A stretch of DNA of 40,011 nucleotides from assembly GCA_049697135.1 (NCBI GenBank), contig JBAVVE010000061.1, forward strand, positions 1 through 40,011, read 5' to 3'. Position 1 is the first letter of the stretch. Every line of letters begins with the position of its first letter. Positions 5,756 to 31,041 of the stretch are shown piece by piece. A program made the translations under genes and the position numbers. The notes under the pieces are model-generated. The model saw only the letters and a list, made by a program, of their open reading frames with translations. It searched no databases and was not told the DNA's origin. The stretch comes from Candidatus Bathyarchaeia archaeon. GTDB taxonomy: Archaea; Thermoproteota; Bathyarchaeia; 40CM-2-53-6.

Positions 5756-6535
5756 ATGATGCCGCTTCTTCTGGTGTCGTTCTTGTTCTTGTCTTCTTTG
5801 AACATGACATGGTTGCCGTTCGTGTTCATTACTGAGGTCTCTCCCGAGTCTCCGATGATCTTTGACATGGTGACGGTGACTTGGCTTGTGCAGACTGATG
5901 TTTCAGTGCCCATAACGGTGGCTCAGTGGGATTTCGGAGACGGCACTGGGGGCGTAGACGCTCAGCAGAACATGACGGGCACGTTCTACATAACGCGGGC
6001 GCATGTCTACGCGGTGCCTGGCGACTATTATGTGCGTGTAGGTGTGGTGGATGCTTTGAATCGGACTGCTCAAGATGTTATAGCGGTCACGGTTCAGCCT
6101 CGTGCAACAGTAATCACTTTCAATGTGAATCCGGTGAATGTGAACTCCAGCTATGACGAGCACTTCACATTTGAGGCGAGTCTTGCGACGGATCAAGGAG
6201 TCACGCTGGTCGGTCAGCCGGTCGCTTTCTGGTACTCTCCCGTGCCTGTGAATCAAACAGCCGATGATATCAAGTGGTACTCGGCTGGAGGAGGACTAAC
6301 GAGCAACGGTGGACGCATCATGACTTTATGGGTTGCACCCTTCGACGGACAATACATATTCAAAGCTACATTCGATGGCGGCGAACTCTATGCTCCAACC
6401 GAAACAATCTACACCATGATTTGTCAAGTCACACCTGAGTTTGCGATGCCATCAGTAGTGCTGATCATCGGGTTTCTCTCAATCGTCTTTTGCAAGAGAA
6501 TAGGGCACCGACCGTCGGCCAGCATACACCTGTAA
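5756..6535 (+). CDS. PKD-domain surface protein with a PEF-CTERM-like C-terminal sorting signal
   Basis: WDFGDGTGG..HVYAVPGDYYVRVGVVDALN is a classic PKD signature. The C-terminus is TPEF + AMPSVVLIIGFLSIVFC + KR (PEF motif, TM helix, basic cluster). Confidence 0.75.
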   Translation: MMPLLLVSFLFLSSLNMTWLPFVFITEVSPESPMIFDMVTVTWLVQTDVSVPITVAQWDFGDGTGGVDAQQNMTGTFYITRAHVYAVPGDYYVRVGVVDALNRTAQDVIAVTVQPRATVITFNVNPVNVNSSYDEHFTFEASLATDQGVTLVGQPVAFWYSPVPVNQTADDIKWYSAGGGLTSNGGRIMTLWVAPFDGQYIFKATFDGGELYAPTETIYTMICQVTPEFAMPSVVLIIGFLSIVFCKRIGHRPSASIHL

Positions 6536-8401: not shown

Positions 8402-8920
8402 ATGCGGCCCCCCAAGAAACAGCTGTTTGAGCTGAGTGGCCGTGATGTTGCTCTTGCGTTTGCGATAGGTGTCATAGGTTTCGTCTTCAGTACACGGACT
8501 TGGCTTCTGTTCTTGAGTGGTCTCGATGTGGTGTTGGGCTGCTTGATGTACTACATCGTCTTGTATGCCACGTTGCTCGTCTTCAGTAGGATGAAGTTGA
8601 TAGTCTTCGCTCCCAAAATTGGCAATGTGCGCGGAACAGTAGGCCTAGTGTTGTTGACATTCGCGCTGTTCGTGACAGTGAACTGGGAAAACCCATATGT
8701 GCAGTACATCACAACAGGTAGCTTCGGCGGTGCGAGTCCAATCTTGTTTCAAGCGGAAGATGGGGTAGCGTGGCTCTTCGTGACGCAAGTGCTTGGGGTG
8801 CTTGGAATAGTAGACATTGAAGTCGCACGAATCTTCGCGTTCTCCATCGTGCCCGCACTTGTGGCACTTGTGGGTCTATCCCTAATTGGCGGCAGAGTCA
8901 AACTGAATGCATTCGCATGA
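8402..8920 (+). CDS. integral membrane protein
   Basis: 172 aa, 4-5 TM helices, starting 2 nt after the upstream stop. Confidence 0.65.
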   Translation: MRPPKKQLFELSGRDVALAFAIGVIGFVFSTRTWLLFLSGLDVVLGCLMYYIVLYATLLVFSRMKLIVFAPKIGNVRGTVGLVLLTFALFVTVNWENPYVQYITTGSFGGASPILFQAEDGVAWLFVTQVLGVLGIVDIEVARIFAFSIVPALVALVGLSLIGGRVKLNAFA

Positions 8921-9866
8921 ATTTCTCGTCCTGCGCTGCGCTGTCTTACCCCAACGTCATTTTCATACTAGAGGTCGATATGTAGTGAGAAATGCTGGGG
9001 TATTCGCCCTCATTCTTGTTGTTGGAGCCGCTTTTCTAACGCAATCTAACGCACAGGTGCCTGCTTGGGAGCAGGTGTCAGTTAGTGAGCTTCTGGGCAA
9101 TCCATCGAACTATGCTGGGCATCTCGTGAGGGCAGGTGGCTATATCGTAGAATGCACATGTTCTGCTCCCAGTCTCGATTGCCCGTTCGGTTGTCCGAAA
9201 TACAGTCTCTACGAAGCCACTCACGAAGTCGCAGCAGTCATTCCAACCGATCCTAATATCGCGTTGAGTTGGTCGGAAACTGTTGATCCTCTAGTTTCGT
9301 TTGTTCAGTTCACCTATGATGGACAACAAATTGTCCAACATGCATCTGGTGTTCCGAGAACGGTCTGGATCATAGGTACGTTCCTAGACAGAGAACGAAT
9401 CATGGATGCTCCTCGATACATCATCATTGTTAGCAGCATCTCTTGGTATGAAACTGTGACGTTATGTCAGCCGAATTGTGTGTATCCGAGTGTTCCAGAC
9501 TATGAACATTGTACCTGCGTATCGCCAACTACTCAGACCACGACTCCTGCGTGTCCTCCATACCAGTGTCCAATCGGTCAAGTCTACGACGCAAGTTGCC
9601 ATTGCGTATCACCCGTTTCACTGTGTAATCCAAATTGCGCGTACCCCGCTATTCCAGACTACGAGCATTGCACATGTGTCGCCCCTTCAACGACGACAGC
9701 GGTTTCTTTATGTCAGCCGAATTGTGTGTATCCAAGTGTTCCAGACTATGAGCACTGCACTTGTGTAACGCAGACACCTAACCCGATCGTGAAGGCATGG
9801 AATGGCTTCTGGAACTCACTCCGTTGCCTCTTCCCATTCCTGGGGCCCTGCTTGCCTCAAAGTTAG
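8907..9866 (+). CDS. secreted Cys-rich repeat protein
   Basis: 319 aa with a signal/anchor (VFALILVVGAAFL). It has three copies of the module LC(Q/N)PNC(V/A)YP(S/A)(V/I)PDYEHCTCV plus a related CPPYQCPIGQVYDASCHCV. Confidence 0.7.
   Translation: MHSHEFLVLRCAVLPQRHFHTRGRYVVRNAGVFALILVVGAAFLTQSNAQVPAWEQVSVSELLGNPSNYAGHLVRAGGYIVECTCSAPSLDCPFGCPKYSLYEATHEVAAVIPTDPNIALSWSETVDPLVSFVQFTYDGQQIVQHASGVPRTVWIIGTFLDRERIMDAPRYIIIVSSISWYETVTLCQPNCVYPSVPDYEHCTCVSPTTQTTTPACPPYQCPIGQVYDASCHCVSPVSLCNPNCAYPAIPDYEHCTCVAPSTTTAVSLCQPNCVYPSVPDYEHCTCVTQTPNPIVKAWNGFWNSLRCLFPFLGPCLPQS
9462..9768 (+). repeat. in-frame DNA repeats encoding the CxPNCxYPxxPDYEHCTC module
   Basis: 9462-9522 and 9708-9768 are near-identical (TTATGTCAGCCGAATTGTGTGTATCC.AGTGTTCCAGACTATGA.CA.TG.AC.TG). 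A diverged copy lies at 9621-9683. Confidence 0.8.
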
Positions 9867-10290
9867 TGGTTTCTTCTCTCGTAGTCGCCGTCTCTCGGCT
9901 TGCTAGGTACGGGGTTTCCGCTCGTCTCTTCCGTTCAGCTTCCCCTAATTTTGTGTGTGGGGGTCGCGTCACGTGTTGCCGACTATCCGTACCTGGTAAG
10001 GGTACTCACCATCCGTACCGACCATCCGTACCCCCGCGTGTGTTCATGTTTCATGTTTCACGTGAAAGGACAGGACGACCAAGGACGACCCGCGAACCGT
10101 AGAGCGCCCACGGAAAACCAAACAAAAAACACCAAAAGGAGAACGTAGAGAGGAGAGACAACGGACGACGCTAACAGACGACGCCGACGCCGAGGCCGAG
10201 CCTATCTCTCTCTTGTCTTGTCGGTTCCAGCGTATCGAATAACTTATATGCAAACCATATACCCCTTAAGGGCATAGGCGCGAAAGGGAA
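9867..10290. promoter_or_regulatory. 424-bp non-coding region with iterons, a perfect palindrome and a pyrimidine-to-purine strand switch (candidate origin or control hub)
   Basis: ATCCGTACC x3 (9985, 10011, 10024). CATGTTT x2 in tandem (10045-10058). TTTCACGTGAAA at 10056-10067. AGGACGACC x2 (10072, 10082). Only 4 T in 10061-10200, whereas 9867-9960 is T/C-rich. TATA-like AACTTATATG near 10240. Track ORFs here are short, overlapping and low-complexity. Confidence 0.45.
10056..10067. promoter_or_regulatory. perfect 12-bp palindrome TTTCACGTGAAA (symmetric form of the TTWCA-SS-TGWAA motif)
   Basis: Read directly from the sequence. It shares both half-sites with the over-represented coding-region motif. 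Confidence 0.6.
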
Positions 10291-10896
10291 TTGAGTAGAA
10301 CCGACGCCCAGCCAGACGTAAACGTGACTCTGAAAGGTCACGTGATAGCTTATGACCTTCCGGCGGAAGACCGGACCGACTTGAAAAAAATCCCAGAAGC
10401 ATATCACAAAGTAGCCAACGCACGAATCAGAAGCACCACCGCATTACACGCGCTCGGATTATGCGCCACTCAGTCAGTAGTTCTCACAACGAAACCCGAA
10501 ACGGTCATCAAAGAGACTTTCGAGAAAGTGCATAGCTTCTATCAGGACGCGAACGCAGCCCTTAGAGTATTGGGACTTGGAGAACTTGGAGAGCCGGACC
10601 TTAGACCGATCAAGATTCTCGAAGCGCAGTACATGGATTTCAAAAGTCTAGCAGAAGCGAAGCTCTCCAAGAGCCTCGATAAGACGATAAACGAACTTGC
10701 AGCGCTCGCCCAGTCAATCGAGAACCTAACCGGGGAGGCTCTCGATAAAGTCATTGTGAGTTTGAACAGAAAAGAAAAGCCACTCACACAAGCCCAAGCA
10801 CTCGCCAAGGAATTAGGAGTGGACCTCTCCGACAAGTTTAGCCTTGTCGAACAACTCACCAAGACCGTGTACGCCAAAGCCGGGATCTCCGCATGA
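10291..10896 (+). CDS. hypothetical protein, first gene of the MoxR-VWA operon
   Basis: 201 aa, helical/coiled, with a TTG start. Its stop overlaps the next start (ATGA at 10893-10896). Confidence 0.55.
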   Translation: MSRTDAQPDVNVTLKGHVIAYDLPAEDRTDLKKIPEAYHKVANARIRSTTALHALGLCATQSVVLTTKPETVIKETFEKVHSFYQDANAALRVLGLGELGEPDLRPIKILEAQYMDFKSLAEAKLSKSLDKTINELAALAQSIENLTGEALDKVIVSLNRKEKPLTQAQALAKELGVDLSDKFSLVEQLTKTVYAKAGISA

Positions 10897-11003
10897 CCGT
10901 CGAAGACATGATACAGCGTTTTCCGGACCTGAAAACCGAATACCTAGAAATGCTAACCCCGAGAGCCCGGCGTGATCTTCAAAGGTTGGCGCGTCTCGAA
11001 TGA
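10893..11003 (+). CDS. 36-aa coupled micro-ORF
   Basis: MTVEDMIQRFPDLKTEYLEMLTPRARRDLQRLARLE. It has ATGA overlaps at both ends (10893-10896 and 11000-11003). It is below the track cutoff. Confidence 0.4.
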   Translation: MTVEDMIQRFPDLKTEYLEMLTPRARRDLQRLARLE

Positions 11004-12487
11004 TCAACAAGGACCTATACGCGAAACTCTGCGAGACTCGGAGACTGATCGAAACCGCATTTTTCCATGACGCATATTATCTTGTAACGGTCCTCGCAGC
11101 TTTTGTCAGCCGCTCACATATCTGTCTCTTAGGGACACGTGGAACCGGGAAGACTCACTTAGCGAAATGCCTCTTGCGAACCGTAGACCCCTCGATCACC
11201 GCAACGCAACAAGGGTATCTTAGCGCCGATTTCGAGCAAGTTTTGGCAGCGCCGAAAGTCGCCCAGCTGATGCTAGGAATCGAAGAAGTGACTTTTCGGA
11301 AACTTGCCACCGCTCGCCTTAAGATGATCGACGAAATTCAAAGGCTCGGAATGGCCGCACTATCCGCTTTCTTCAGAATACTAGACGACGGAGCAGTTGA
11401 GTATCTAGGCCAGGAGCGCCAAGTGGAAGAACACTTTACGATAGCGACAGCGAACCCAACAGAGAGAGACAGCGACACCCTCAATATCACAATTCCAGAG
11501 CCCCTCTGGGATCGTTTCGCCGCTGTGATCTGGGTCCCCATAGCTCGGCTCAAGGACCAAATGAAGATTAACGGTAACGTCAAGAAAGCGCTCGACGCCA
11601 TACAGCCGATATGGACCGAAAAGGACCTCTTAGCCCTCTGGAATGATGTTAGAGAGAACGTGACGGTCAGTAAGGAACTAGAGTACACTACAACCCTGAT
11701 GCTTCGTATTCCGTCGATCTGTATCAAGGGACAAGGGTTAGACGGTTCGAGCCTTGAACCTGAAAAGAAAAGAGCAAAGTGCGCAGAGTGTAACCAAAAC
11801 TATCTCTGTTCAAAAGTTCTCACACCCCCCTCGTTACGCTTGAAACTTGCATATCTCGAAATGTCGAAAGGGTTCGCCTATGTGGACGGACGGGACAGCG
11901 TCAACATGAAAGACCTTGAAGACGCTTTCCCAGTGGTTTTTTGGAAGCGCATAGTCTTCATGGACGAGGACGAGATAACGGACAGGCTCACAGCGCTCCG
12001 GGCTTTCTTCAAACTACTGACCAAGGAAATGCACGAGGCACAAGAAGCGGTGGAACTTGCCTATGAACTGAAACAGAAATACACAGCTGCGAAAATGCAG
12101 GAGCTAGAGACAGCAGCGAAGGCGAAAGTTTGGCTTATTGAGGCAGTAGATGACGTGAAAAGTCACCAAGAACACCTTAGAGCCCAGCTGAAAACGAGAC
12201 ACGCACAAGCGAAACAGAAGAATGACTCAGAGGAATTAAGCAAGATTAGCGACCTAGCCAGCGAAGTATTACCCCCGCAAGACGCTAAAGCCTTTCATCA
12301 CAACGAACCCCAGACGATCACCCTAACCGCTCAGACAGTCGCAGGACTCGCAGCGGTAGACCTTGAACTCTTCAAGCGTGCAAAAGCCGCATTTGACGCC
12401 AAACAGACAACCATGACCCTAACCGACGAAGAGGCCCGGCGAGTACGAGCAAAGCGCACGAAACCAAGCAAACAAAAAGCCAAGTGA
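11000..12487 (+). CDS. MoxR-like AAA+ ATPase with a C-terminal coiled-coil extension
   Basis: Walker A is LLGTRGTGKTHLAK, Walker B is LKMIDEIQRL, and sensor-1 is FTIATANPTE. The order and spacing are typical of MoxR/AAA_3-AAA_5. About 170 aa of the C-terminus is Lys/Glu/Ala-rich. Confidence 0.85.
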   Translation: MINKDLYAKLCETRRLIETAFFHDAYYLVTVLAAFVSRSHICLLGTRGTGKTHLAKCLLRTVDPSITATQQGYLSADFEQVLAAPKVAQLMLGIEEVTFRKLATARLKMIDEIQRLGMAALSAFFRILDDGAVEYLGQERQVEEHFTIATANPTERDSDTLNITIPEPLWDRFAAVIWVPIARLKDQMKINGNVKKALDAIQPIWTEKDLLALWNDVRENVTVSKELEYTTTLMLRIPSICIKGQGLDGSSLEPEKKRAKCAECNQNYLCSKVLTPPSLRLKLAYLEMSKGFAYVDGRDSVNMKDLEDAFPVVFWKRIVFMDEDEITDRLTALRAFFKLLTKEMHEAQEAVELAYELKQKYTAAKMQELETAAKAKVWLIEAVDDVKSHQEHLRAQLKTRHAQAKQKNDSEELSKISDLASEVLPPQDAKAFHHNEPQTITLTAQTVAGLAAVDLELFKRAKAAFDAKQTTMTLTDEEARRVRAKRTKPSKQKAK

Positions 12488-12493
12488 TCAAGA

Positions 12494-12814
12494 ATGAGTA
12501 GCCAAAACGCAGAGCAAGCCAACACGAAACACGCAGACGAGCTGAGAAAGCTCGGTGAAATATTCGGGCCCTTTATGCCAAGTATGCCCCGCTACAACTA
12601 TTGGACGCTAAACCTTGGAAAAGGAAAGGCAACCTACGCATTTGGCTGGACGACTGAAAGAGACTCGGACGGGAAATTCTCGGCTTTCATCTACCGAATA
12701 GTGAAGAAAGGCAAGACCTGGAAGCTATTGAAGTCTCTGAGCTACCGCAGACGAAAGGTTGCGAAAGCCAAAGCCTTGTCTTGGTACGAGAGCCGCCGCA
12801 AGACCTTGGACTGA
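12494..12814 (+). CDS. hypothetical small basic protein
   Basis: 106 aa, lying between the ATPase and the VWA gene on the same strand, with a 6-nt gap. Confidence 0.55.
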   Translation: MSSQNAEQANTKHADELRKLGEIFGPFMPSMPRYNYWTLNLGKGKATYAFGWTTERDSDGKFSAFIYRIVKKGKTWKLLKSLSYRRRKVAKAKALSWYESRRKTLD

Positions 12815-12844
12815 GAGCACGGAAGGAAGGAGAGACAAGCCCCT

Positions 12845-14683
12845 ATGATTCTTGATAACGATTTCCCAGAATACACCGAGACCGCCGAGAAGATAGATCG
12901 AGAACTCGCATACGTCAACTTCATTATTAGAAGACTCAACGAGGACAAGGTGCCTTATGTCCGGAACGGGATTATCTACATCCCAGAAAAGAAAGGCCCA
13001 GGTAGATTCAGCGCCGACATAACCCACGAAGGCGCCCACCTTGTCCGGGACCCAATCACCTACCCGGATTATGCAGAAGGGATTCACGCGATACACTCAC
13101 TTGTATGTCCCAATGACATGCGCGAAGCGGCAGACCTCGCTAATCGAGCCTCAGACCTCATTATCGAGAACTGGATTAGCCGCAGAAGTAAGACGCTCCG
13201 GGAAATTATGTTACCGGATATTCTCGCGTTATGGCGTGCGCACTCTTCTAACAAGGACCCGAAATGGCTCGCCCTCATGCAAGCATACGGGCAAATATAC
13301 GGACTTCGAGAAATTCCGCTTACTATGCCTGATTTCTGGGAAAAGATCAAGACCGCACTAAGAGACCCGGATCGTCTCAGCAAGTACGTTAAGATCGCTC
13401 AAGCTTTCACAGAATTACCGAGCACCCCAGCCCCGCCCCCAGAAGACGAGAAGCCACAAGAGAACCAGTCCGGAGAAGGCGAGCAGGAGCAGAGTCAGGA
13501 TCAGCAGCAGAGCGGAAGCGGACAGAGCAAGGACGAAGACAAGGGCCAAGACGAACAAGGGTCCGGCGACGAAGAAGAGGACACGGACGCAGACGACGAC
13601 AAAGACGGAGAGGACGAAGACGGAGAAGGCGACCGACAAGAAAAACAAAAAACAAAACACCAAAGCGAAAGCGAACAGACAGAAGAAGAGGACAAAGGAG
13701 AATATGAGGCCCGCCCCGCAGAACCAGACGCCCCGATCAATCCCACTCACGAAGACATGCAAACCGCTATTGAGACCGCTATGCAGAACAGTCAAGACGA
13801 TAGCGAGCTTAGAGAACGACTTGAAGAACTCAGCGCGATAGGTGCAGGTGTCGGAGCGGAAGAACTTCAAGAACTCCAGAACGATCAGTGGTTGAGGATT
13901 CTCCGATTCTACGAGACGAAAGCCGCGAAGATCACGTTAGCTATAGATTTTCCGAAGAGAGCAAGCCGCACAGCAACCGAGTTATCCACTCGGAAATGGC
14001 GCTTTAGCGATGGACTTCAAGCGATAGATCACGCAGCCACGATAATGAAGAAAGGCATTAACGTGCCTCTTGTCACAGCGCAGACCCCGCAGACCTTCAA
14101 CCGTGTAAGGCTTGATCGGAGAGGCCGAGAATCCCGCCCCTTAATCATGTCTTTTGATTGCTCCGGCTCAACCGGGCCACGTTTCGGAACTATGCGAGAG
14201 ATTAGGGACTGGGAAGCGATAACATTCTTAGCGATTCTTCGCCAAGCGAGGAAACTCGGTCAACAGATCGGATTTGATTTCTGGCATGACTACTTAGCGA
14301 AAGAAGCGAAGCCAACAGACCCCCGACAATTCACAGAGCTAAAGCGCCAATTCTTCCAGAACTACCCGGGCCCAATGTACGGAACCAGCATCACCCCAGC
14401 CCTACACAAAATAAAACAAAAACCAGACGAGGCATTCATGCTCATTACAGACGGAATAATCTCAGAGGGACGCGAACAACTCAGCAACGAAGCTAGAGGC
14501 ATATCAAATACGCTCGTTCTAATCTTCGCTCAGTTTGACCCGGACGCAGCCCAAAACCAAAGAGACGAGTACGTGCCAGCGTTTCAAGAAGCATTTGGCG
14601 CTAACCGGGTCCTCTTCATCGAGAAACTAACCGACTTGCCTAAGATCGCGTTAAAGTCTTGGAGGGACTGGTTTTGGGCGTGA
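12845..14683 (+). CDS. HExxH metallopeptidase-like N-domain + acidic linker + VWA (MIDAS) domain protein
   Basis: HEGAH motif (ITHEGAHLVRD). About 100 aa of D/E/Q/G/S low complexity (nt ~13430-13720). The C-terminal LIMSFDCSGSTG (DxSxS MIDAS) and MLITDGII resemble the DUF2201-type partner of MoxR ATPases. Confidence 0.8.
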   Translation: MILDNDFPEYTETAEKIDRELAYVNFIIRRLNEDKVPYVRNGIIYIPEKKGPGRFSADITHEGAHLVRDPITYPDYAEGIHAIHSLVCPNDMREAADLANRASDLIIENWISRRSKTLREIMLPDILALWRAHSSNKDPKWLALMQAYGQIYGLREIPLTMPDFWEKIKTALRDPDRLSKYVKIAQAFTELPSTPAPPPEDEKPQENQSGEGEQEQSQDQQQSGSGQSKDEDKGQDEQGSGDEEEDTDADDDKDGEDEDGEGDRQEKQKTKHQSESEQTEEEDKGEYEARPAEPDAPINPTHEDMQTAIETAMQNSQDDSELRERLEELSAIGAGVGAEELQELQNDQWLRILRFYETKAAKITLAIDFPKRASRTATELSTRKWRFSDGLQAIDHAATIMKKGINVPLVTAQTPQTFNRVRLDRRGRESRPLIMSFDCSGSTGPRFGTMREIRDWEAITFLAILRQARKLGQQIGFDFWHDYLAKEAKPTDPRQFTELKRQFFQNYPGPMYGTSITPALHKIKQKPDEAFMLITDGIISEGREQLSNEARGISNTLVLIFAQFDPDAAQNQRDEYVPAFQEAFGANRVLFIEKLTDLPKIALKSWRDWFWA

Positions 14684-15039
14684 GAAGGCTTTCAGGTGTA
14701 ATTGCGACCGAGTGCCAGTGGTGCTCTCTGGTGCGGTCTTGCCCGGCCTCAAAATTAGAGACACCTGACCATATTCGCTTGGCGTTCGATGATTGGCTAA
14801 CCCGGCTCCGGTTGGGTTCTGAGATCGAAAAGGTTCAGTTGCCGGGTGCTGTTGCGGCAGACCATAAACTAAACTCGCAAGACCTGATACGGTTCTTCCG
14901 GTTGGTGCTCAAAGCCGAGGATTCGCTTTCACCTGTAAATATGCTACCGTACCGAGAAAAGCAGCCACAGATTCCAACACTTACACCTGAAATTGGGCAT
15001 CTTCTCGGGCAACTGTTTCTAGGAGAGGCTGTCGCATGA
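14659..15039 (+). CDS. hypothetical protein
   Basis: 126-aa track ORF. The probable start is GTG 14680, overlapping the VWA stop (GTGA). Its stop overlaps the next start (ATGA 15036-15039). It contains three copies of the dyad motif. Confidence 0.5.
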   Translation: MEGLVLGVRRLSGVIATECQWCSLVRSCPASKLETPDHIRLAFDDWLTRLRLGSEIEKVQLPGAVAADHKLNSQDLIRFFRLVLKAEDSLSPVNMLPYREKQPQIPTLTPEIGHLLGQLFLGEAVA

Positions 15040-15434
15040 ATGTCACTCAGATTTCAATCCCAGTGGCAGAACAGCAATACTATGTCTGTAAATGGGAAGT
15101 GCCGAGTTTCAGTGATCCAAGCAAAGCCTACACTGTGAGCAAGACCGTCTCAGGAGACTATCAGTGCAGTTGTCCGCGCTGGACCAAATCGAAGCTGTAT
15201 CGTCGTCAGCAATGTAAGCACATTGATACTGTGCTGGGTCATCTTCCCCCGTCGCCGCCGCCTCAAAATAAGAGGCAGCCACGAGCGAAGCCCCGAGCGC
15301 CGAAGGCTCCCGTTAGGGTTACACCTGAAAGTGCAGTTGATCCTACCGAGACCGGACGCTTGTTTGGAAAACTGTTTGCGGACGAGGAAGTTCACGAGAC
15401 GACACGGAGAGCAAAGAACACAGTAGAGGCATGA
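15036..15434 (+). CDS. SWIM zinc-finger protein
   Basis: YQCSCPRWTKSKLYRRQQCKHI matches the CxCx(n)CxH SWIM signature. The tail is basic and Pro-rich. Confidence 0.75.
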   Translation: MNVTQISIPVAEQQYYVCKWEVPSFSDPSKAYTVSKTVSGDYQCSCPRWTKSKLYRRQQCKHIDTVLGHLPPSPPPQNKRQPRAKPRAPKAPVRVTPESAVDPTETGRLFGKLFADEEVHETTRRAKNTVEA

Positions 15435-15577
15435 GCAAACATGACTGAGCTATTGGGGGGAAGGCTTATTTCCACGCAAGCCCATTTGGGGTATAGCACA
15501 AAATTAGGGAGAGAATACATCATGTGACCAATAGGCCCGGGCAATCACCCTGACGAGGCCCGGCGAAACTCCCGAGT

Positions 15578-16393
15578 GTGGAGTTGGTGAAAGGTATGAG
15601 TAAAACAGAAACCGTAACCGTGACGCAGCCGCCCGATACTGAGCAGCTACGTCAAGAACTTGAACAGAAATTGTCCGGTGAACAGAAAGGCCAAAAAGGA
15701 AAAAAGGCGTTCGCCGGGTTCGATCTCAAACTCTCTTATGGAAGCAGAAGCGTCAACGTCGATACAGTCGTGAAGTTTGAGAAGCTGGACAGCAAAGAGA
15801 TAGACCAGCGCCTACAAAGCGAAATCTTCGCGGAAGCGGTCTTACCAGACGGTGCTCACGTGTCCGTACATAATGGGTACGCTCCGAAAGGCATGTCTCG
15901 TAAGGCATGGTGGAACCCAGACGAGACACAAGACTATCCAGAAACGATGATACACTGGTTCCAGGAGACAAGCGACGGCAAGTTCGAGGTAACACCGCCC
16001 CCACGCACTACCGAGCTTCAAGGAAAAGACGCTGAGACAATTCCAATGACGCAAGTTGAAGAATGGCTGTCTGAAAGCGAATACACGATATGGGCACACC
16101 CGAAGAAAGGCTCAGTCTCAGCACTCTGGGCAATCGCGGAAGACATGATAAAGACCGATACAGCGCGGAAGTGCGGCCCTTTCAGTTTCGGAGTCAAAAA
16201 CAGCTTCCGTGAATGCTGGGCTATCCTCTATCCGGTGAAGCGTGACGGAGAGTTCCTTCTGAAGATGCGCTTGGCCCGGGTTCACGTACACCTGAAACAT
16301 TTCATGCCAATGCCAATAACGAACGGTACACCAGCCCCGGTCCCGGTCGGTCCGAAGACAACACGGAAAGCCAAACACACACTAGAGGCATAA
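15578..16393 (+). CDS. hypothetical protein (weak Ku-like pattern), first gene of the ligase module
   Basis: 271-aa track ORF. The probable start is ATG 15596 (MSKTETV), behind GGTGAAAGG. The C-terminal half ..SALWAIAEDMIKTDTARKCGPFSFGVKNSFRECWAILYPVKRDGEFLLKMRL.. loosely parallels the bacterial Ku core. This is unverified. Confidence 0.6.
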   Translation: MELVKGMSKTETVTVTQPPDTEQLRQELEQKLSGEQKGQKGKKAFAGFDLKLSYGSRSVNVDTVVKFEKLDSKEIDQRLQSEIFAEAVLPDGAHVSVHNGYAPKGMSRKAWWNPDETQDYPETMIHWFQETSDGKFEVTPPPRTTELQGKDAETIPMTQVEEWLSESEYTIWAHPKKGSVSALWAIAEDMIKTDTARKCGPFSFGVKNSFRECWAILYPVKRDGEFLLKMRLARVHVHLKHFMPMPITNGTPAPVPVGPKTTRKAKHTLEA

Positions 16394-16398
16394 GCAAA

Positions 16399-17184: not shown

Positions 17185-17481
17185 GTGAATGATTTGCCAA
17201 CCTATACGACAGTAACGCATGTGGTAGAGTGCGACTCTTGTCCAGCAAAAGAGGGTCGCATTTCTACGACCACACTAGAAGACAACACGGGCGACCAGAT
17301 CAACACTGAATGTATCAAGTTCTATGAAGAGCTTCGCGGTAAAGGCTGGTGGATTGAAGACGACGGTACACTTTGTCCCAACTGTGGCGAGAATGAGGAA
17401 CTGCCGCTCGTAGCGAAGATCATGGGAAAGTCAAGCGCTCCGCAAACTTTGAGCAAGGTGGAGCTTTCAGGTGTAGGTTGA
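17185..17481 (+). CDS. zinc-ribbon protein
   Basis: 98 aa with ECDSCPAK..LCPNCG. GTG start. Its stop overlaps the ligase start (TTGA 17478-17481). Confidence 0.55.
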   Translation: MNDLPTYTTVTHVVECDSCPAKEGRISTTTLEDNTGDQINTECIKFYEELRGKGWWIEDDGTLCPNCGENEELPLVAKIMGKSSAPQTLSKVELSGVG

Positions 17482-18395
17482 TGCTTTCGTCTGTTGTGGT
17501 TCAGGCGACTGTTCCGAAAGTCAGTGAGGAACCGCTTAAGACATGGCTTGCGAAGAATCGACTCGGGCCCTACGCGGTTGAGCGGAAGATTGATGGTGAA
17601 AGGCTCCAGGTTGAAGTCTCCGCAAAAGTTGTGTCCTACGCGAACCGTCACACATTCCTAGCCTCCAACGGTGACTTGCCGAAGCTGTCTAAGGCGATCC
17701 TTGAGGCTACGCATGGTGAGGATTGCTGGCTTGACGGTGAGCTGACTACAGGTGTAAGTAGCGAGTTCTACGGCGAGAACGGGTACTTGGCGAATCGGGC
17801 GAACCGTGATGAGATGATCTATGTCGTCTTCGATATTCTCGGCTTGAACGGTGAAGATCTGCGGTTGAAATCGTACAGTGAGCGGAGACAGATTCTCGAA
17901 ACGACCTTGCGTGCGAATGAGAAGGTTCAGCTGGTCGAGGCGTGGACTTGTGAGACCGAGCAGAAGATCTTGCAGGTGTATGATCGAGTAGTCGCGGAAG
18001 GCGGCGAAGGCGTCATGGTGAAGCCGCACCCCAGTATCTACGCGAACAATGCTTGGGTGAAAATGAAGCATACTGCTACCGCTGATCTGGTGATCTTGGG
18101 TGTGATGAAGACGAAGGAGAGTTTCCTGATCGGTCATTACAGGTGTACGGAACCAGCCGGGTTCATCCGGTACGGGCGTGTTTCCGCGCATGGTTGGGAA
18201 GTTGTGAAAGAGACGGTTCTGAAAGCTGTGACTGGGGAAGACGCACAATTCTGGTACGTGCAGCCGTTCGTTGCTGTGGAGATCCGGCATAACGGCCTCA
18301 TCGAAACCTCAGAGGGCAAAACGTACCGTCATCCCCGAATCCTTCGCTTGAGGTTCGACAAATCCGTGAAAGACTGTGAGGCGCACAAAACTTGA
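17478..18395 (+). CDS. minimal ATP-dependent DNA ligase
   Basis: Motif I is AVERKIDGERLQV (KxDGxR), III is WLDGEL, IIIa is YVVFDIL, IV is EGVMVK and V is AWVKMK. At 305 aa it is nucleotidyltransferase plus OB only. Confidence 0.9.
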   Translation: MMLSSVVVQATVPKVSEEPLKTWLAKNRLGPYAVERKIDGERLQVEVSAKVVSYANRHTFLASNGDLPKLSKAILEATHGEDCWLDGELTTGVSSEFYGENGYLANRANRDEMIYVVFDILGLNGEDLRLKSYSERRQILETTLRANEKVQLVEAWTCETEQKILQVYDRVVAEGGEGVMVKPHPSIYANNAWVKMKHTATADLVILGVMKTKESFLIGHYRCTEPAGFIRYGRVSAHGWEVVKETVLKAVTGEDAQFWYVQPFVAVEIRHNGLIETSEGKTYRHPRILRLRFDKSVKDCEAHKT

Positions 18396-18706: not shown

Positions 18707-18876
18707 TGGCGCTTGAAGTAATTGCGAGGATTATCGACAAGGTTCCAGAATGCCCTTGCAGACGCAGTCAATACGGGCGCAGCCGCCATTACTATGGGGG
18801 CGGAAAGCGATGCCTCTATTGTGGGTACGAGAAGGGAACTGGGACGTTCTTGGCGAGAGAGGTAATCTCATCTTGA
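18706..18876 (+). CDS. 56-aa zinc-ribbon micro-ORF
   Basis: MALEVIARIIDKVPECPCRRSQYGRSRHYYGGGKRCLYCGYEKGTGTFLAREVISS. Its start overlaps the upstream stop (TAATG). Its stop overlaps an in-frame TTG of the methyltransferase (TTGA 18873-18876). Confidence 0.4.
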   Translation: MALEVIARIIDKVPECPCRRSQYGRSRHYYGGGKRCLYCGYEKGTGTFLAREVISS

Positions 18877-19790
18877 AAGATCGTGAAACTCTTTTCGAGC
18901 CATATTGTGGCGCTGGAGGCATGGGCTCGGGCTTCGCACGCTACTTCCAGATCAGCTACGCTGTAGACGTGCTTCCGGAGGCCGTCGCAACCTATTCCGC
19001 GAACTTCCCAAGAGCCGATGTGCAGATCCGAGACATCCATGCTCTTTCAGGTGTAAGAGGCGACTTCGACGGAATCGCAGGCGTAATCGGCGGCCCTCCG
19101 TGCCAGAGTTGGAGTATCATCAACGTCAAACGTGGTGTCGGTGTGGACCCACGTCGAGAGCTCTGCCAAGAGTTCATGCGTCTCGTAGTGGAGATCCGGC
19201 CACGCTTCTTTGTGCTCGAAAATGTGCCGTTCGTGCCGAAACAGGTGAAGGAGACCTGTCGGAAAATTGGTCTCGATAATCATTACACCTGTAAGACTGA
19301 GTACCTTGACGCGAGCGATTACGGATCTGCCCAAACACGGAAACGCTGGCTTCTAATCGGCCTCAGAAACGGAACGATGCGAGAGCCACGGAGAACTCAG
19401 AGCAAGACCGTTCGTGATGCCTTCCAAGGGCTGCACAAAAATTGGGGCATGATGCAGTCAAGCCCTGACATGCTCGCTCGTCTTTCAGGTGTAAAGTCCT
19501 GTGAGTGGGTGCCGATCTCCCAGGGAGGTTTCAGGAACGCCTGTCGCCTCAACTGGGATAGGCCATCTCCTACGGTTGTGAATCTCAAGAAGGTCTACAT
19601 GGTTCACCCAGATGAGGATCGGAACATCTCATTGGCGGAAGCGGCGGCTCTACAGGGATTCCGAGCTGGCTTCACATGGAAGGGCACTGAGTCGAAGATC
19701 GCTCAAATGATCGCCAATGCGATGCCTGTCCAACTCGCGGAAGCAATCGCGGAATCGCTATCGCTCAATGAGGGGCGAATGGAAACATGA
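18750..19790 (+). CDS. DNA (cytosine-5) methyltransferase
   Basis: Motif I is FEPYCGAGGMGSGF, IV is GGPPCQSWS, VI is FVLENVP, VIII is SAQTRKRWLLIG and X is IANAMPVQLAEAI. The real start is probably TTG 18873 (MKDRETLFEPYCGAGG). Confidence 0.9.
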   Translation: MPLQTQSIRAQPPLLWGRKAMPLLWVREGNWDVLGERGNLILKDRETLFEPYCGAGGMGSGFARYFQISYAVDVLPEAVATYSANFPRADVQIRDIHALSGVRGDFDGIAGVIGGPPCQSWSIINVKRGVGVDPRRELCQEFMRLVVEIRPRFFVLENVPFVPKQVKETCRKIGLDNHYTCKTEYLDASDYGSAQTRKRWLLIGLRNGTMREPRRTQSKTVRDAFQGLHKNWGMMQSSPDMLARLSGVKSCEWVPISQGGFRNACRLNWDRPSPTVVNLKKVYMVHPDEDRNISLAEAAALQGFRAGFTWKGTESKIAQMIANAMPVQLAEAIAESLSLNEGRMET

Positions 19791-24487: not shown

Positions 24488-25732
24488 ATGAATCGAACCA
24501 ACACGATTCTACTTACGCCAACCCATGAACAAGAGCAGCAGCTCCGCAGCCTCGCGGAAGCATCAGCGCGACTATGGAACATGGCAAACTATGAGCGACG
24601 ACAAGCCCTCTTCAAAAGCCAGCGAAACCTCACCTACGCGCAACAATGCAAACGCCTCAAAGACGCGGACGCATTCAAGCAGCTCGGCACATGCAAAGCC
24701 CAAGCCGTCCTCATGAAACTACGAGAAGCATGGGGAAGCTACCATACATTGAAGAGGCTGCAAAGGAACGGCCAACTGCCACCCCACATTAAGCGCGTTT
24801 CTCCACCACGCTACATGAAAGACCGCCAGACGCGAAGGCTTACGGCAAACACAATCTATGTCCGCAACGACGGATACAGGCAAGAGGACGATACGCTGAT
24901 CCTCTCGAAGAGCCTCGGTGTTCCCTTCAAGGCAGGCGACCTCTGGCTTGGAAAGCAAGGTAGACTTGAACTCCACTACGACTCGCTACGCAAGAGATGG
25001 TGCGGTCATATTCCAGTGAAGGTTAAGTGGCCCCGTAAGGGTAAACCACATCATTCGACGCGGAAACGTGCGTCCATCGACCTTGGAATATGCAACCTAG
25101 CCACATGCGTAATCGAAGATAGCGGCAAAGCCTACGTGTACTCTGGACGCGCCGTATTGAGCGACTGGCGGTACTGGACGAAACTTATCGCCGCAGTCGA
25201 AAGCGAACTGAAGAAGACGAATGGGCGGGACAGTTCGAAGCGTCTCAGCAGACTCTATCGGACACGCAGACGACGGCTGGACCATGCAGTGAAAGCGATG
25301 CTTCGAGACCTCTACGAGCAGCTAGAAAACGAGTGCGTCACCGATCTCGTCGTAGGCGACTTGAAGCATATCCGAGACAACGCGAACCACGGCAAAGTCG
25401 GGAACCAGAAGCTGCACAATTTCTGGCCGTTCGCGCAGATCCGCCAACGAATCCATGAACTCAGCGAAGAATCCGGCATACGGGTACGGTTCAAGTCGGA
25501 GCGGGGCACATCGAAACATTGCTCTCTATGTGGAGAGAAGCACAAGAACGGACGAGTGAAACGTGGACTCTACAAATGCGCCAAAACGGGCACGACACTC
25601 AATGCGGATGTGAACGGCGCAACCAACATCCTCTATGGGCGAAAAGTAGCCGCAGTTAGCGGTAGCAGGCCACTGGCATGGCCTATGCTTCTGAAGTGGA
25701 ACTCTCAGAAATGGGAAGTGTCCGCAGCATGA
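24488..25732 (+). CDS. tnpB: TnpB / IS605 OrfB RNA-guided endonuclease family protein
   Basis: 414 aa. The N-terminus is LLTPTHEQEQQLRSLAEASARLWN. RuvC-I is RASIDLGICNLA. LVVGDLKHI follows. The zinc ribbon is TSKHCSLCGEK..YKC. RuvC-III is NADVNGATNIL. Confidence 0.9.
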   Translation: MNRTNTILLTPTHEQEQQLRSLAEASARLWNMANYERRQALFKSQRNLTYAQQCKRLKDADAFKQLGTCKAQAVLMKLREAWGSYHTLKRLQRNGQLPPHIKRVSPPRYMKDRQTRRLTANTIYVRNDGYRQEDDTLILSKSLGVPFKAGDLWLGKQGRLELHYDSLRKRWCGHIPVKVKWPRKGKPHHSTRKRASIDLGICNLATCVIEDSGKAYVYSGRAVLSDWRYWTKLIAAVESELKKTNGRDSSKRLSRLYRTRRRRLDHAVKAMLRDLYEQLENECVTDLVVGDLKHIRDNANHGKVGNQKLHNFWPFAQIRQRIHELSEESGIRVRFKSERGTSKHCSLCGEKHKNGRVKRGLYKCAKTGTTLNADVNGATNILYGRKVAAVSGSRPLAWPMLLKWNSQKWEVSAA

Positions 25733-27798: not shown

Positions 27799-29043
27799 TT
27801 GGTGGCAGTTGTCGCGGTTCCCGGCTTCGTTGAAGGCATCAACGATGATGTGGAACAGCTTATGCGTAAGTTTGGGAACTGTCGACGCCGCGCGTACGTG
27901 ATGAAGCAGAAGGGCAGGGATAGGCTGGAGATACTAAAGCAGCTGCACCGCGAAACTGAGCTGCCAGTACGCTACGTCTACACGGCCTACGACACAATCA
28001 AGGCCCTACCCTCACATGTCACATTCGGCGGTCTCAGACTTCAGAGACTCCGAGAAAGCGGCCAGGTCCCCAAAGAGGAGTACCATGCCCGTAGGAACCG
28101 TATGCTTGCTTGCAGAGGCGACCGCAGCCGCGAAGGCAACCTCTGTCTCAGAATCAAAGACAACAAGCTCCGCATCTGCATCGGCCCGCATCAGTGGATT
28201 CATGTGCCGCTCTCAGTTCCTGAGAAGTATCGTAAGCGATACCAAGCACTTCTGGACGGCTCGAAACCCTACACCATCATACTGCGACGACGACTTGATG
28301 GACGTGGCTACGACGCCAAGATCATAATCCCTGTTGAATCGCCCACTACTCCGGAACCGAAACGCGTCATGGCTTTGGACATAAACTCAGGCCACGTGGA
28401 CTTCGCAGTCGCCGAGAAGACAAGCCTGAAGCCTGTAGTGTTTGGCAAAGTGAACTGCTCCGAACTCGTCAACGCTGGACACGGCAAGAAAGAGATCTTA
28501 GCTCAGAAGCTTGTGAACAAGGTTGGAAACATCGCTAAGCATTACGGCGCTGAGGTTGTGGCGGGCAAACTGAGAACTCTTCACTGCAAGGGCCATAGAC
28601 ACTTAAACCGTAAAACTCAAGGCATGAACCAATACCGCATGCGACAGATTCTACGATACAAGCTTCCACTACGCGGCATACGATACCGCGACATGTCCGA
28701 AGCATACACCACACAAGTAGGCAAGAAGCTCTCTAAGCCTCTCGGGGTCGACGTGCATAAGGCAGCCGCGTACGCGTTCTCTGTTAAGGTGATCGACTAT
28801 CCGTCGTTCACATTCCTCCGCAGTGTCCATGCAAATGAAGACGATGGAAGCCTCAGCATGTGGCTAAACGGAGGAAGCGAGCCAACAGCTCCACACCAGG
28901 CCAACCGTAACGGCCTGATGTGCAATGACTCACATGCGCTCGCATGTGAGGAGGCTACGCCCAACCTTCAAGCAACCGATTTTCCAATGCGGCGATTTCA
29001 ATCGTTTGGGTGTCAACTTCGCGCGTCATCATTTTCCTTCTGA
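27799..29043 (+). CDS. TnpB-like protein lacking the zinc ribbon (possibly nuclease-impaired)
   Basis: 414 aa. RuvC-I is VMALDINSGHVDFAV. The ..GAEVVAGKLRTL segment has no acidic residue where the intact copy has VVGDL. SEAYTTQVGKKLSKPLGVDVHKAAAYAF joins the TSQ-like motif directly to a RuvC-III-like motif, with no CxxC pairs. Confidence 0.7.
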   Translation: MVAVVAVPGFVEGINDDVEQLMRKFGNCRRRAYVMKQKGRDRLEILKQLHRETELPVRYVYTAYDTIKALPSHVTFGGLRLQRLRESGQVPKEEYHARRNRMLACRGDRSREGNLCLRIKDNKLRICIGPHQWIHVPLSVPEKYRKRYQALLDGSKPYTIILRRRLDGRGYDAKIIIPVESPTTPEPKRVMALDINSGHVDFAVAEKTSLKPVVFGKVNCSELVNAGHGKKEILAQKLVNKVGNIAKHYGAEVVAGKLRTLHCKGHRHLNRKTQGMNQYRMRQILRYKLPLRGIRYRDMSEAYTTQVGKKLSKPLGVDVHKAAAYAFSVKVIDYPSFTFLRSVHANEDDGSLSMWLNGGSEPTAPHQANRNGLMCNDSHALACEEATPNLQATDFPMRRFQSFGCQLRASSFSF

Positions 29044-29082
29044 GGCTCAGCCTTGTCTTCTGATCGGCGGAATCTCTACGGC
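29027..29082 (+). repeat. SSDRRxLYG module, copy C, with conserved leader
   Basis: CATCATTTTCCTTCTGAGGCTCAGCC TTG TCT TCT GAT CGG CGG AAT CTC TAC GGC. 42 of the first 43 nt are identical to copy E. Confidence 0.75.
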
Positions 29083-31041
29083 AGAGGACAGCGCACTCAC
29101 GCGCGTCTTCGAGAGCCAGTTGGCAAGGCAGCGCTGAGGTTCAAGCAGCCGCGTCGTATGCCCTTCACGTTGAGGAACATCAAGGCTTTGCCTGAACGGC
29201 GACCCGGCGTTTACTACTTCTACGACAAGCATGGAAATCGAATCTACACAGGATCAGCTGCCGAACGCGGAGTCAAGGCCCGACTAGAGGACACATTCTA
29301 CTCGGTGGACGGTAATGAGACAATTCTTGTCAAGCAAAGCATAGAGACGCAAACCAAGATCGCGCGACTTAGAATCAGTGAATTTGTTGATTCATTCTAC
29401 AAAGAGAATGAAGACAATGCCCAACCCATACCCCTCGCTCGTCCAGCATGGTGTCTATCGGCAGCATGGATGTCACCAGGCGCATCAGATCTCTTGCAGC
29501 TAGGCTGGCGTAGAATCCAGGCTGTCTTCAGACACAAACTCGAACCGGGTGAGAAACTTCTACGTTTCTCAACGGGGACAGGTCGTTCAGTTGCTGTTAC
29601 GAAGGGGCACAGTCTGATGATCTTCAAACAAGGGCGAATTGTCTCCTTTCCAGCCAAAGAACTGAAGCGAGAAGACATGCTGATTATCCCGCGTGTTATT
29701 CCCGCACTCACTTCTGTCCCCTCCAAGACATTGCCGTTCACTCTCATCACCGGCAGACAAAAAGTCAAGATCCATCAGAGGAATGTTCCCGTAGATGACA
29801 AGTTGATGCGGTTGCTAGGCTTTTTCGTCTCTGACGGCTCCTACATGTCTAGCGTACAATCAGGACGCTTCCAAGGATTGAACTTTGATTTCGGGCTTCA
29901 AGAAGAACATCTTTTCAACCAACTGAATGAAGCATGTCTGCATCTCTTTGGAGCAGCGCCTAAGAAGAAATATCCCGAAGATAAGAAAGCAATTAGAGGG
30001 ATACTCAACTCTGCTTTCGCACAAGCCTTCTTAGAAGAAGGTCTGCATGTCTCGCGTGGAGCGCATAACAAGTCGGTCCCAGATGTTGTTTGGAACGCGC
30101 CAGCTGACTACCAAAGGATATTCATGCAAGGGCTGTGGGACGGTGATCGCGGAGCGACTGTCAGTCCTCAACTCGCATCCGACATGCTATACTTGACTTC
30201 AATGTCACTTGACTGCTCCGGCTCTATAGACATCCGCCATGAAAAAGCACGCTTTAGAGGTCTGGGTTTTCCATATCGACCCTGCACGATGTATCATCTC
30301 GTTGTGCCACCGCCAAACCGAGCAGAACCCTATAGGCGACGGTTCGAATTGGGTCCGCCTATTATCGAGGTCTTGAAAGTCTTCGATGAGCTAGTCCCAT
30401 TCAGAGGCACGGGACTACACAAGGGACAAGACGATTGGGTGAAGCATTGGCGAAATGGGCCTCGAAGACACGCAACGGAGAGGGACATTAGGAACTTCTG
30501 CATGACGCGTTCGCGCCGTCTGCTCTATGAGCGGCTTTCCGCATTTGGGAATGGCCGTCAGCGATGGTGGACAACGAAGGAACTCACTGGGGCATGGGGA
30601 ATGGCTCGTCGAGAACAAGTATCGGACTATTTGAGAAAGAGCCCAATTTTGGAGACAAACATGCTCCAAGTAAGAGGCAGAGCAACAAAAGAGTATCAAT
30701 TAGACGATAGTACCTGCGACATAATGGAACGAATCCGATTTACAATGAGAGCATGTTCGTCAAACCGTGGAGTGGATTTTGACATCATCGAGAAGATTAC
30801 CGAAGTTGAGCCATCAAGCTCTTACGTGTATGATCTAATTGTTCCAGAAACAGAATGCTTCATTGCAGGCTTTGGGGGGATCCTCGTACACAATTCACGT
30901 GGTGACTATGCCACGATCCCGAAGAAACGTGAACTTCGCAAGAAAATCGCTAAGGTCGACATTCAATGGGGCAAGAACGTCTACGATAACCGCGAGATCG
31001 AACTGAAACAGAAACAAGGGCTTGTTGGAAACACTCGTTAG
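29053..31041 (+). CDS. GIY-YIG nuclease-domain protein interrupted by an intein; carries the SSDRRxLYG N-terminal module
   Basis: The extein has PGVYYFYDKHGNRIYTGSA (GIY..YIG) and, after the intein, ..NREIELKQKQGLVGN (Glu/Asn helix). The exteins are 133 + 48 aa. TTG start. Confidence 0.85.
   Translation: MSSDRRNLYGRGQRTHARLREPVGKAALRFKQPRRMPFTLRNIKALPERRPGVYYFYDKHGNRIYTGSAAERGVKARLEDTFYSVDGNETILVKQSIETQTKIARLRISEFVDSFYKENEDNAQPIPLARPAWCLSAAWMSPGASDLLQLGWRRIQAVFRHKLEPGEKLLRFSTGTGRSVAVTKGHSLMIFKQGRIVSFPAKELKREDMLIIPRVIPALTSVPSKTLPFTLITGRQKVKIHQRNVPVDDKLMRLLGFFVSDGSYMSSVQSGRFQGLNFDFGLQEEHLFNQLNEACLHLFGAAPKKKYPEDKKAIRGILNSAFAQAFLEEGLHVSRGAHNKSVPDVVWNAPADYQRIFMQGLWDGDRGATVSPQLASDMLYLTSMSLDCSGSIDIRHEKARFRGLGFPYRPCTMYHLVVPPPNRAEPYRRRFELGPPIIEVLKVFDELVPFRGTGLHKGQDDWVKHWRNGPRRHATERDIRNFCMTRSRRLLYERLSAFGNGRQRWWTTKELTGAWGMARREQVSDYLRKSPILETNMLQVRGRATKEYQLDDSTCDIMERIRFTMRACSSNRGVDFDIIEKITEVEPSSSYVYDLIVPETECFIAGFGGILVHNSRGDYATIPKKRELRKKIAKVDIQWGKNVYDNREIELKQKQGLVGNTR
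29452..30894 (+). mobile_element. 481-aa intein with a LAGLIDADG homing-endonuclease domain
   Basis: It begins with Cys (AW|CLSAAW; TGT 29452-29454). Block B is VTKGHSL. The LAGLIDADG motifs are LLGFFVSDGSY and FMQGLWDGDRGA. The C-terminus is YVYDLIVPETECFIAGFGGILVHN|S (AAT 30892-30894, +1 Ser). Confidence 0.8.

Follow-up and report, generated by a model that had tools for sequence, protein, structure and literature searches.

A three-gene module of a MoxR-class ATPase, an HExxH-linker-VWA protein and a third conserved partner in uncultivated archaeal virus-like elements

The window analysed here is the whole 40,011-bp contig JBAVVE010000061.1, which derives from a freshwater sediment metagenome and carries nearly all of its genes on one strand. 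It represents an uncultivated archaeal virus-like element, with relatives in sediment and groundwater samples, and contains a co-directional, translationally coupled gene cluster centred on an AAA+ ATPase and a VWA-domain protein. The initial annotation had described seven tightly packed open reading frames (ORFs), and the ORF listing confirms these, all on the plus strand: g1 (10291–10896, 201 amino acids (aa), TTG start), g2 (10893–11003, 36 aa), g3 (11000–12487, 495 aa), g4 (12494–12814, 106 aa), g5 (12845–14683, 612 aa), g6 (from 14659 with TTG, 126 aa, or from 14680 with GTG, 119 aa, to 15039) and g7 (15036–15434, 132 aa). The reported junctions are likewise present in the sequence, i.e., ATGA at 10893, 11000 and 15036, GTGA at 14680 and a gap of 6 nucleotides (nt) at 12488–12493; missing from that list was a 30-nt purine-rich gap separating g4 from g5 (12815–12844). 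Non-coding DNA bounds the cluster on both sides, with 424 nt upstream (9867–10290) and 143 nt downstream (15435–15577). A TATA-like CTTATAT (10243–10249) and the perfect palindrome CCCTTAAGGG (10263–10272) lie 19–48 nt 5′ of the g1 start on the plus strand and are kept in four diverged relatives with variable flanks. We regard this segment (10243–10272) as a putative archaeal promoter. The proposed archaeal mobile-element setting is supported by relatives binned as Nezhaarchaeales, Methanomethylicota and Culexmicrobium, by PCNA in a close relative and by archaeal-type intein matches.

Conservation of the cluster was followed across 58 related loci searched with hidden Markov models (HMMs) of g1, the ATPase and g5. 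The ATPases of these loci represent 33 lineages at <85% identity, and the homologue sets of g1, g4, g6 and g7 were drawn solely from the fetched loci. Wherever the contig is long enough, g1, the ATPase gene and g5 occur in the same order on one strand, the sole exception being the most distant locus (L012, 25% ATPase identity), in which g1 was not detected. The junctions of this trio in distant lineages are overlaps or gaps of 0–4 nt, and most other neighbours at distant loci are ORFans. Homologues of g2, g6 and g7 are limited to five loci with ATPases 93–98% identical to that of the window, i.e., to one of the 33 lineages, and the 32 other lineages are without g2, g4, g6 and g7. As judged from this comparison, the conserved unit consists of three genes (g1, g3 and g5), not seven. 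The initial annotation had claimed a fixed association of the ATPase and VWA proteins with a SWIM finger protein, a micro-ORF and the other unknowns, and had itself stated that neighbours lacking co-conservation would refute it; co-conservation indeed fails for g2, g4, g6 and g7 and holds for g1 alone among the partners. Tight packing in one genome does not imply a seven-gene system.

The ATPase encoded by g3 was predicted to be of the MoxR type, and this is borne out by its AAA_5 profile match, its catalytic motifs and a Foldseek match to MoxR. The Pfam AAA_5 model scores 31 bits against a cut-off of 22, with AAA_3 (25.1 vs. 27 bits) and AAA_lid_2 (22.4 vs. 22.7 bits) narrowly missing their cut-offs; most g3 relatives have precomputed AAA_5 and AAA_lid_2 matches. 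The score against bpMoxR (PF20030) is 13.9 bits with a cut-off of 27, and precomputed matches to this model are present in several family ATPases. Across 22 aligned family ATPases, the Walker A motif (G45–T52, nt 11132–11155) has invariant G45, R47, G50 and K51 and a nearly invariant T52, and D111 and E112 of Walker B (nt 11330–11335), the sensor 1 residue N152, the Arg finger R172 and the sensor 2 residue R280 do not vary. Equally invariant (22/22) are four cysteines in the lid region, C241, C261, C264 and C270, arranged as C-x19-C-x2-C-x5-C (aa 241–270, nt 11720–11809). From the alignment, the four are a probable zinc site within a lid insertion; to our knowledge, no such site has been described in characterised MoxR proteins.

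The AlphaFold2 (AF2) model of g3 is confident (pLDDT 88.3), and among PDB structures Foldseek ranks MoxR 2R44 first (E 5e-15, TMt 0.76), with RavA, MCM and BchI next. Extra strands at residues 83–85 and 97–99, between β2 and β3, and a hairpin at 132–141 before β4 sit in the strand order where the helix-2 insert and the pre-sensor-1 hairpin of the clade are expected. The long Lys/Glu coiled-coil tail ascribed earlier to this protein gives way to a conserved and confidently folded helical domain (aa ~329–487) in both alignment and AF2 model, and disorder is confined to the last ~9 residues, a basic tail. Motifs and model together predict a catalytically intact AAA+ ATPase of the MoxR/RavA class. 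A collection of 5.8 billion proteins yielded 41 full-length homologues at 39–48% identity, a few of which were binned as Nezhaarchaeales or Methanomethylicota.

The g5 protein joins an N-terminal domain (aa 1–192) with the motif HEGAH (aa 61–65, nt 13025–13039) to a C-terminal VWA domain (aa ~430–612) through a polyacidic linker (aa 195–292, nt 13427–13720) and a helical region (aa ~300–365). [quoted passage not shown] The MIDAS residues are D438-x-S440-x-S442 in DCSGS (aa 438–442, nt 14156–14170), T514 (nt 14384–14386) and D536 (nt 14450–14452) in TDG (aa 535–537). Among 61 unique family sequences, D438, S440 and S442 are kept in 48/48, T514 in 46/46 and D536 in 46/49, the others having E at this position. 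The HExxH residues are similarly constant (H61 59/60, E62 59/60, H65 58/59), and N100 (55/59) and D104 (58/59) are candidate further metal ligands. The AF2 model (pLDDT 79 overall) shows an α/β N-domain, a disordered linker, the helical region and the VWA fold; both domains exceed 90 (the C-domain being at ~90), and aa 195–292 fall below 50. HExxH lies at the end of a helix (52–64) that follows strands 27–31, 38–40 and 43–47, and we consider the N-domain a putative zincin. The linker is rich in acidic residues and glutamine (of 110 residues, 23 are E, 17 D, 15 Q and 11 G) and is the most variable part of the family, with ~100 aa in the window, ~130 in close relatives and no more than a handful of residues in other members.

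The fold of g5 points to VWA proteins throughout, and VWA domains account for each of its 50 best PDB matches, among them NorD of NorQD complexes and the midasin MIDAS domain. Among viral models (BFVD), the best matches are phage ‘VWFA / CobT VWA’ proteins of 600–750 aa that align over their full length (E 1e-9 to 1e-7), whereas the VWA-only PDB matches are weaker (E ~1e-5); gp57 of the halovirus HVTV-1 ranks 8 and ORF892 of Acidianus two-tailed virus (ATV) ranks 18. The window protein has no Pfam match at E ≤ 1, and 6 of 23 family members match VWA_CoxE (best 2e-7, 31.1 bits vs. a cut-off of 26.4) and VWA_2. An assignment of g5 to the DUF2201 type was not upheld, as PF09967 and PF13203 match neither the window protein (E ≤ 1) nor the 23 members (E ≤ 0.1) nor the most distant relatives; for the VWA domain, the nearest models are VWA_CoxE and VWA_2. 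Nevertheless, DUF2201_N and DUF2201 proteins found beside MoxR share the idea of HExxH plus a VWA-like domain, and the weaker BFVD matches of g5 (ranks 28, 40 and 49) include entries labelled ‘VWA-like domain containing protein’ or ‘Metallopeptidase domain protein’. PHROG matches of g5 are marginal (E > 0.02) and cover the acidic linker. When its C-terminal half (aa 296–612) was scanned with HMMER against 1.84 billion representatives, 28 clusters at 50% identity were recovered, and the g5 family is therefore small and isolated. A search with a four-sequence g5 alignment retrieved three proteins only, most likely because it was swamped by acidic low-complexity words, and a chimeric query combining g1, linker-free g5, g4, g6 and g7 likewise yielded g5 alone.

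The third partner, g1, has a conserved N-terminal domain of ~80 aa (YDLPxE...LG...T/SxSV) followed by a long helical C-terminal part that ends in a conserved KELGI. D22, P24, R45, G56, S62 and V63 are invariant in the family, and the start position is conserved, being ATG in four relatives and TTG in the window. Since g1 always immediately precedes the ATPase gene where detected, and the two often overlap, we infer that it may act as an adaptor or substrate. PDB sequence and profile searches of g1 and g5 gave just coiled-coil or low-complexity noise. A Cas2-like ferredoxin fold of g1, suggested by the pattern YDLP...SVVLV, is at most a tentative lead, since Pfam and PDB profiles give it no support.

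Several observations concern the surroundings of the trio in other contigs. At L012, a Woesearchaeota metagenome-assembled genome contig (75–6392), the ATPase is followed by a VWA_CoxE-like protein of 577 aa; a classical AAA (PF00004) ATPase upstream takes the place of g1, and a 585-aa ORFan lies downstream. A fourth gene of ~186–195 aa stands directly 3′ of g5 in five lineages (L011 3885–4445; L030 12647–13213, duplicated in this contig; L041, L045, L047, L052 and L055); it matches no Pfam family and has no counterpart in the window. A separate family of ~180 aa, starting MGTR...DGYPD, occurs a few genes downstream in L001, L007, L011, L016 and L028. Two contigs, L006 (9248 bp) and L030 (16926 bp), are over their whole length 100% identical to their own reverse complement, i.e., perfect palindromes, in which the trio starts ~385 bp and ~520 bp, respectively, from the palindrome centre. 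In four further contigs of 25–48 kb (L011, L055, L052 and L045), the trio lies ≤1.3 kb from a contig end and reads inward. The palindromes and end positions suggest that these genomes are linear, close in hairpins or fold-backs and carry the module at a terminus; alternatively, the pattern arose during assembly as an artefact.

The remaining genes of the cluster have a much narrower distribution. In the 36-aa ORF g2, reading frame and length are unchanged and the two ATGA overlaps persist among four distinct versions of the sequence, in which the variable sites fall on the three codon positions as 6/5/8, and coding constraint is therefore weak. None of the distant lineages has g2, and their g1 and ATPase genes are immediate neighbours. 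The gene g4 lies in a 351-nt insertion on the plus strand (12490–12840) that also comprises the purine-rich leader of g5 and has CAAG at both flanks. In the DNA alignment, the relatives L008 and L010 have nothing between the stop of the ATPase gene and the start of g5, precisely 350–351 nt are missing here from contigs of three other samples, and no g4 homologue was found in any of the 58 loci, close relatives included. Judging from these alignments, g4 has the behaviour of a mobile moron gene; in one of the three samples, sediment sample X2, a fragment ~87% identical to part of the g4 3′ half was seen in another sequence context. Homologues of g6 (~73% identity) are found in L008, L009, L010 and L013 only, and neither g4 nor g6 belongs to a known family. 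The SWIM zinc finger proposed for g7 stands as far as its signature is concerned, C44-x-C46-x13-C60-x-H62 (nt 15165–15221) being followed by a Pro/Lys-rich tail, but the Pfam SWIM model (PF04434) scores 18.1 bits (E 0.0019) and stays below its cut-off of 19.6. PHROGs gave zero matches for g1, g2, g4, g6 and g7. By sequence comparison, the four genes g2, g4, g6 and g7 ride along in the transcription unit of the trio as lineage-specific passengers.

The design of a MoxR ATPase with a VWA partner is already known, and it also occurs in ATV and tailed viruses. ATV p618 is an archaeal-virus MoxR protein with extra C-terminal helices and has the VWA partner p892, much like the trio, and p892 both binds p618 and enhances ATP hydrolysis by it (PMC4124505). 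By hhalign, the AAA cores of p618 and g3 align with a probability of 95.6%, and the RavA-like segment that separates Walker A from Walker B is part of this match; aa 715–832 of p892 (VWA) align with the g5 profile; beyond the AAA core and the MIDAS region there is no alignment. In contrast to the trio, the genes for p618 and p892 are not adjacent, and p618 is a clear member of Pfam bpMoxR (1.5e-24), which the window ATPase is not. The cellular pairs RavA-ViaA, NorQ-NorD, CbbQ-CbbO and BchI-BchD combine, as here, an ATPase of the helix-2-insert clade with an adjacent VWA/MIDAS cofactor, and RavA, BchI and NorD (NorQD) are among the structural matches. However, the trio belongs to none of these subfamilies at the sequence level, has no target enzyme nearby and differs by its Cys4 lid cluster, its HExxH domain and g1.

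The closest parallel in architecture is HVTV-1 gp57, which has an HExxH motif (HECGH) followed by N..A.D..IE, as in the g5 N-domain, and then a ~200-aa polyacidic linker; a helical region comes next, and a VWA domain with MIDAS forms the C-terminus. Its gene lies downstream of that of the AAA_5 ATPase gp59, with a 61-aa ORF between them. The polyacidic linker of g5 had been described as unusual, yet both it and the overall architecture recur in VWA proteins of tailed viruses; because gp57 has the same layout, we consider linker and domain order a recurring design and the combination of HExxH, acidic linker and VWA as known. The likeness is uneven, with an hhalign probability of 78% between gp57 and g5 over the middle region and the VWA domain but 3% between the N-domains, where the HExxH helix alone is aligned. 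Likewise, gp59 and the family ATPase reach 0.2%, i.e., no likeness beyond the P-loop. No g1 equivalent is known from the AAA+/VWA pairs of tailed viruses (cobS/cobT-annotated, as in HVTV-1), and the carriers of HVTV-1-type pairs are tailed Caudoviricetes, whereas the present element is without PHROG structural matches. What is new in the trio are the sequence families themselves, the fixed partner g1 and the Cys4 insert in the ATPase lid.

The explanation we favour, and hold to be somewhat more likely than not, is that the trio forms a MoxR-VWA remodelling machine with a tethered putative zincin and the family-specific partner g1, probably for assembly or maturation of the element. In the described vWA-MoxR systems, the MIDAS site of the vWA protein captures a peptide and hexameric MoxR, working via helical and charged linker segments, alters the conformation of the bound protein, the conformational change reaching the vWA partner and the bound peptide via charged linkers (PMC7159879). 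By analogy, the g3 ATPase would form a hexameric ring on which the g5 VWA domain docks, gripping an acidic target peptide via its MIDAS metal. ATP hydrolysis would then remodel or release the target, and the tethered HExxH domain would probably cleave the target or else bind it through its metal, with g1 as a dedicated adaptor or substrate. The trio is fixed in 33 diverged lineages and is the outermost cluster in several contigs, and its function therefore most likely lies in the life cycle of the element itself, where it would help a virion or replication complex to assemble or mature. Some results weigh against this explanation. Pfam, PHROG, NCBIfam, PADLOC and PDB searches gave no credible match for g1, whose role is a guess; neither profile nor fold searches gave a significant match to the HExxH domain of g5 by itself, known peptidases included, and VWA domains dominate the fold lists; a role in virion assembly is unanchored, since no PHROG structural family was matched; and in the window lineage the trio sits 10 kb inside the contig rather than at its end. 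The trio represents a compact, sequence-isolated family with a conserved HExxH domain, found in mobile elements attributed to little-studied archaea. It could be used as a sequence marker to find and group such elements, and it offers a small three-protein system for testing the cooperation of a MoxR ring with a MIDAS domain and a tethered metal site.

A bolder and rather unlikely extension takes the trio as the signature outermost module of undescribed linear, possibly hairpin-ended archaeal viruses or plasmids, working as a split ATP-dependent protease of a new kind. Such a group would span Methanomethylicia, Culexarchaeia, Nezhaarchaeales and sediment archaea, and the MoxR ring with its MIDAS-docked, linker-tethered zincin would act early in infection or replication, with either g1 or a protein of the host as the substrate that it processes. 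Another proposal, already raised in the initial annotation, is a defence or counter-defence function. The trio would then be an NTP-dependent vWA-MoxR ternary conflict system with g1 as third component and HExxH as effector, triggered by a rival virus or by host immunity. Ternary systems of MoxR, vWA and a third conserved protein, occasionally with metallopeptidase effectors and sometimes with peptidase domains fused to the vWA protein, have indeed been described (Kaur et al. 2020, PMC7159879), several family ATPases carry the bpMoxR matches mentioned above, and the module resides on mobile elements. However, the searches produced nothing that favours defence in this locus: PADLOC matched no known defence system, with no match for g1, g4, g5, g6 and g7 and a weak generic P-loop match for the ATPase, and the window ATPase stays below the bpMoxR cut-off. 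In addition, g1 is not a VMAP, iSTAND, FtsH or β-propeller protein, and the composition of the trio is fixed in 33 lineages with neither effector swapping nor effector diversity, whereas the described systems comprise many vWA architectures. Their effectors lie C-terminal to the vWA domain (PMC7159879) and HExxH here lies N-terminal; they are bacterial and tied to a multicellular habit, unlike the archaeal mobile elements that carry the trio. On balance, we consider a conflict system improbable.

A metabolic role appears more doubtful still. As proposed for the cobST clusters of tailed viruses, the ATPase and g5 could act as a CobS/CobT-like auxiliary chelatase that hijacks a host CobN/ChlH-type subunit and inserts metal into a tetrapyrrole. 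Among viral models, g5 most resembles in fold phage ‘CobT VWA domain’/VWFA proteins and HVTV-1 gp57, and an acidic linker between N-domain and VWA is typical of chelatase D/T subunits. Yet no family member matches the Pfam CobT or CobS models, gp57 itself matches only VWA and VWA_2, the family ATPase is unlike gp59 outside the P-loop, and the conserved HExxH and the obligatory g1 are without chelatase counterpart, all of which leaves this role with little probability. Least credible, and in our estimate very improbable, is a machine of all seven genes, with the MoxR-VWA pair permanently joined by the SWIM protein, the micro-ORF and three unknowns as functional partners. The ORFs are indeed packed with overlaps and short gaps between two non-coding stretches, and five close relatives still carry g2, g6 and g7. 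This retention says little because those relatives share 93–98% ATPase identity with the window; g4 is missing even among them, and the 32 other lineages do without g2, g4, g6 and g7 altogether.

Beyond the cluster, the window encodes a weak integrase-like protein and a PKD-domain protein, and an ATP-dependent DNA ligase (17478–18395) and a C5 cytosine DNA methyltransferase (18750–19790) lie downstream. It contains no tRNA genes and no Rfam match, and as direct or inverted terminal repeats are absent, circularity and completeness are not demonstrable. INPHARED gave no DNA or protein match at default thresholds and, at E ≤ 1, weak P-loop-level matches only, with no ATV among them; IMG/VR yielded no relatives, and PADLOC and NCBIfam nothing specific for the cluster proteins. 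The close relative L008 carries its PCNA gene in a part corresponding to a window region that lacks it. Directly upstream of the cluster, a 319-aa protein (8907–9866) contains three near-identical Cys-rich repeats (LCQPNCVYPSVPDYEHCTCV); it is diverging fast, given that the version in close relatives is only 51% identical. Two ORFs at 24488–25732 and 27799–29043 are a TnpB/OrfB_IS605-type protein (OrfB_IS605 2.5e-26, with a Cas12f1-like TNB domain) and a second ORF of 414 aa with a weak TNB/transposase match only. A 662-aa ORF (29053–31041) contains an intein, with a Pfam Intein_splicing match and PDB matches to archaeal TFIIB, PI-PkoII, RadA and CDC21 inteins, in a short extein of ~150 aa.

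Two repeated sequences extend beyond the cluster. The 11-mer TTTCAGGTGTA is probably the ‘dyad motif’ that had been placed exactly at the VWA stop; it begins at 14690, 7 nt past the g5 stop, and is not itself a dyad but forms an inverted pair with 14982–14992. At ≤1 mismatch, 14 copies are present against 0.58 expected, mainly in the window segment 14690–19493, with others at 6525, 7688, 22394 and 31048. They occur in both orientations, also inside coding regions, and their flanks are not conserved; the copies at 14690 (+) and 14982 (−) bracket g6. Finally, g7 and a downstream gene, g8, share the C-terminal peptide TTR[RK]AK.T.EA, and an 84% identical stretch of 43 nt spans both stops (15397–15439 and 16356–16398), with a weaker copy at 17278–17307. 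The common stretch represents either a C-terminal tag or a 3′ element.

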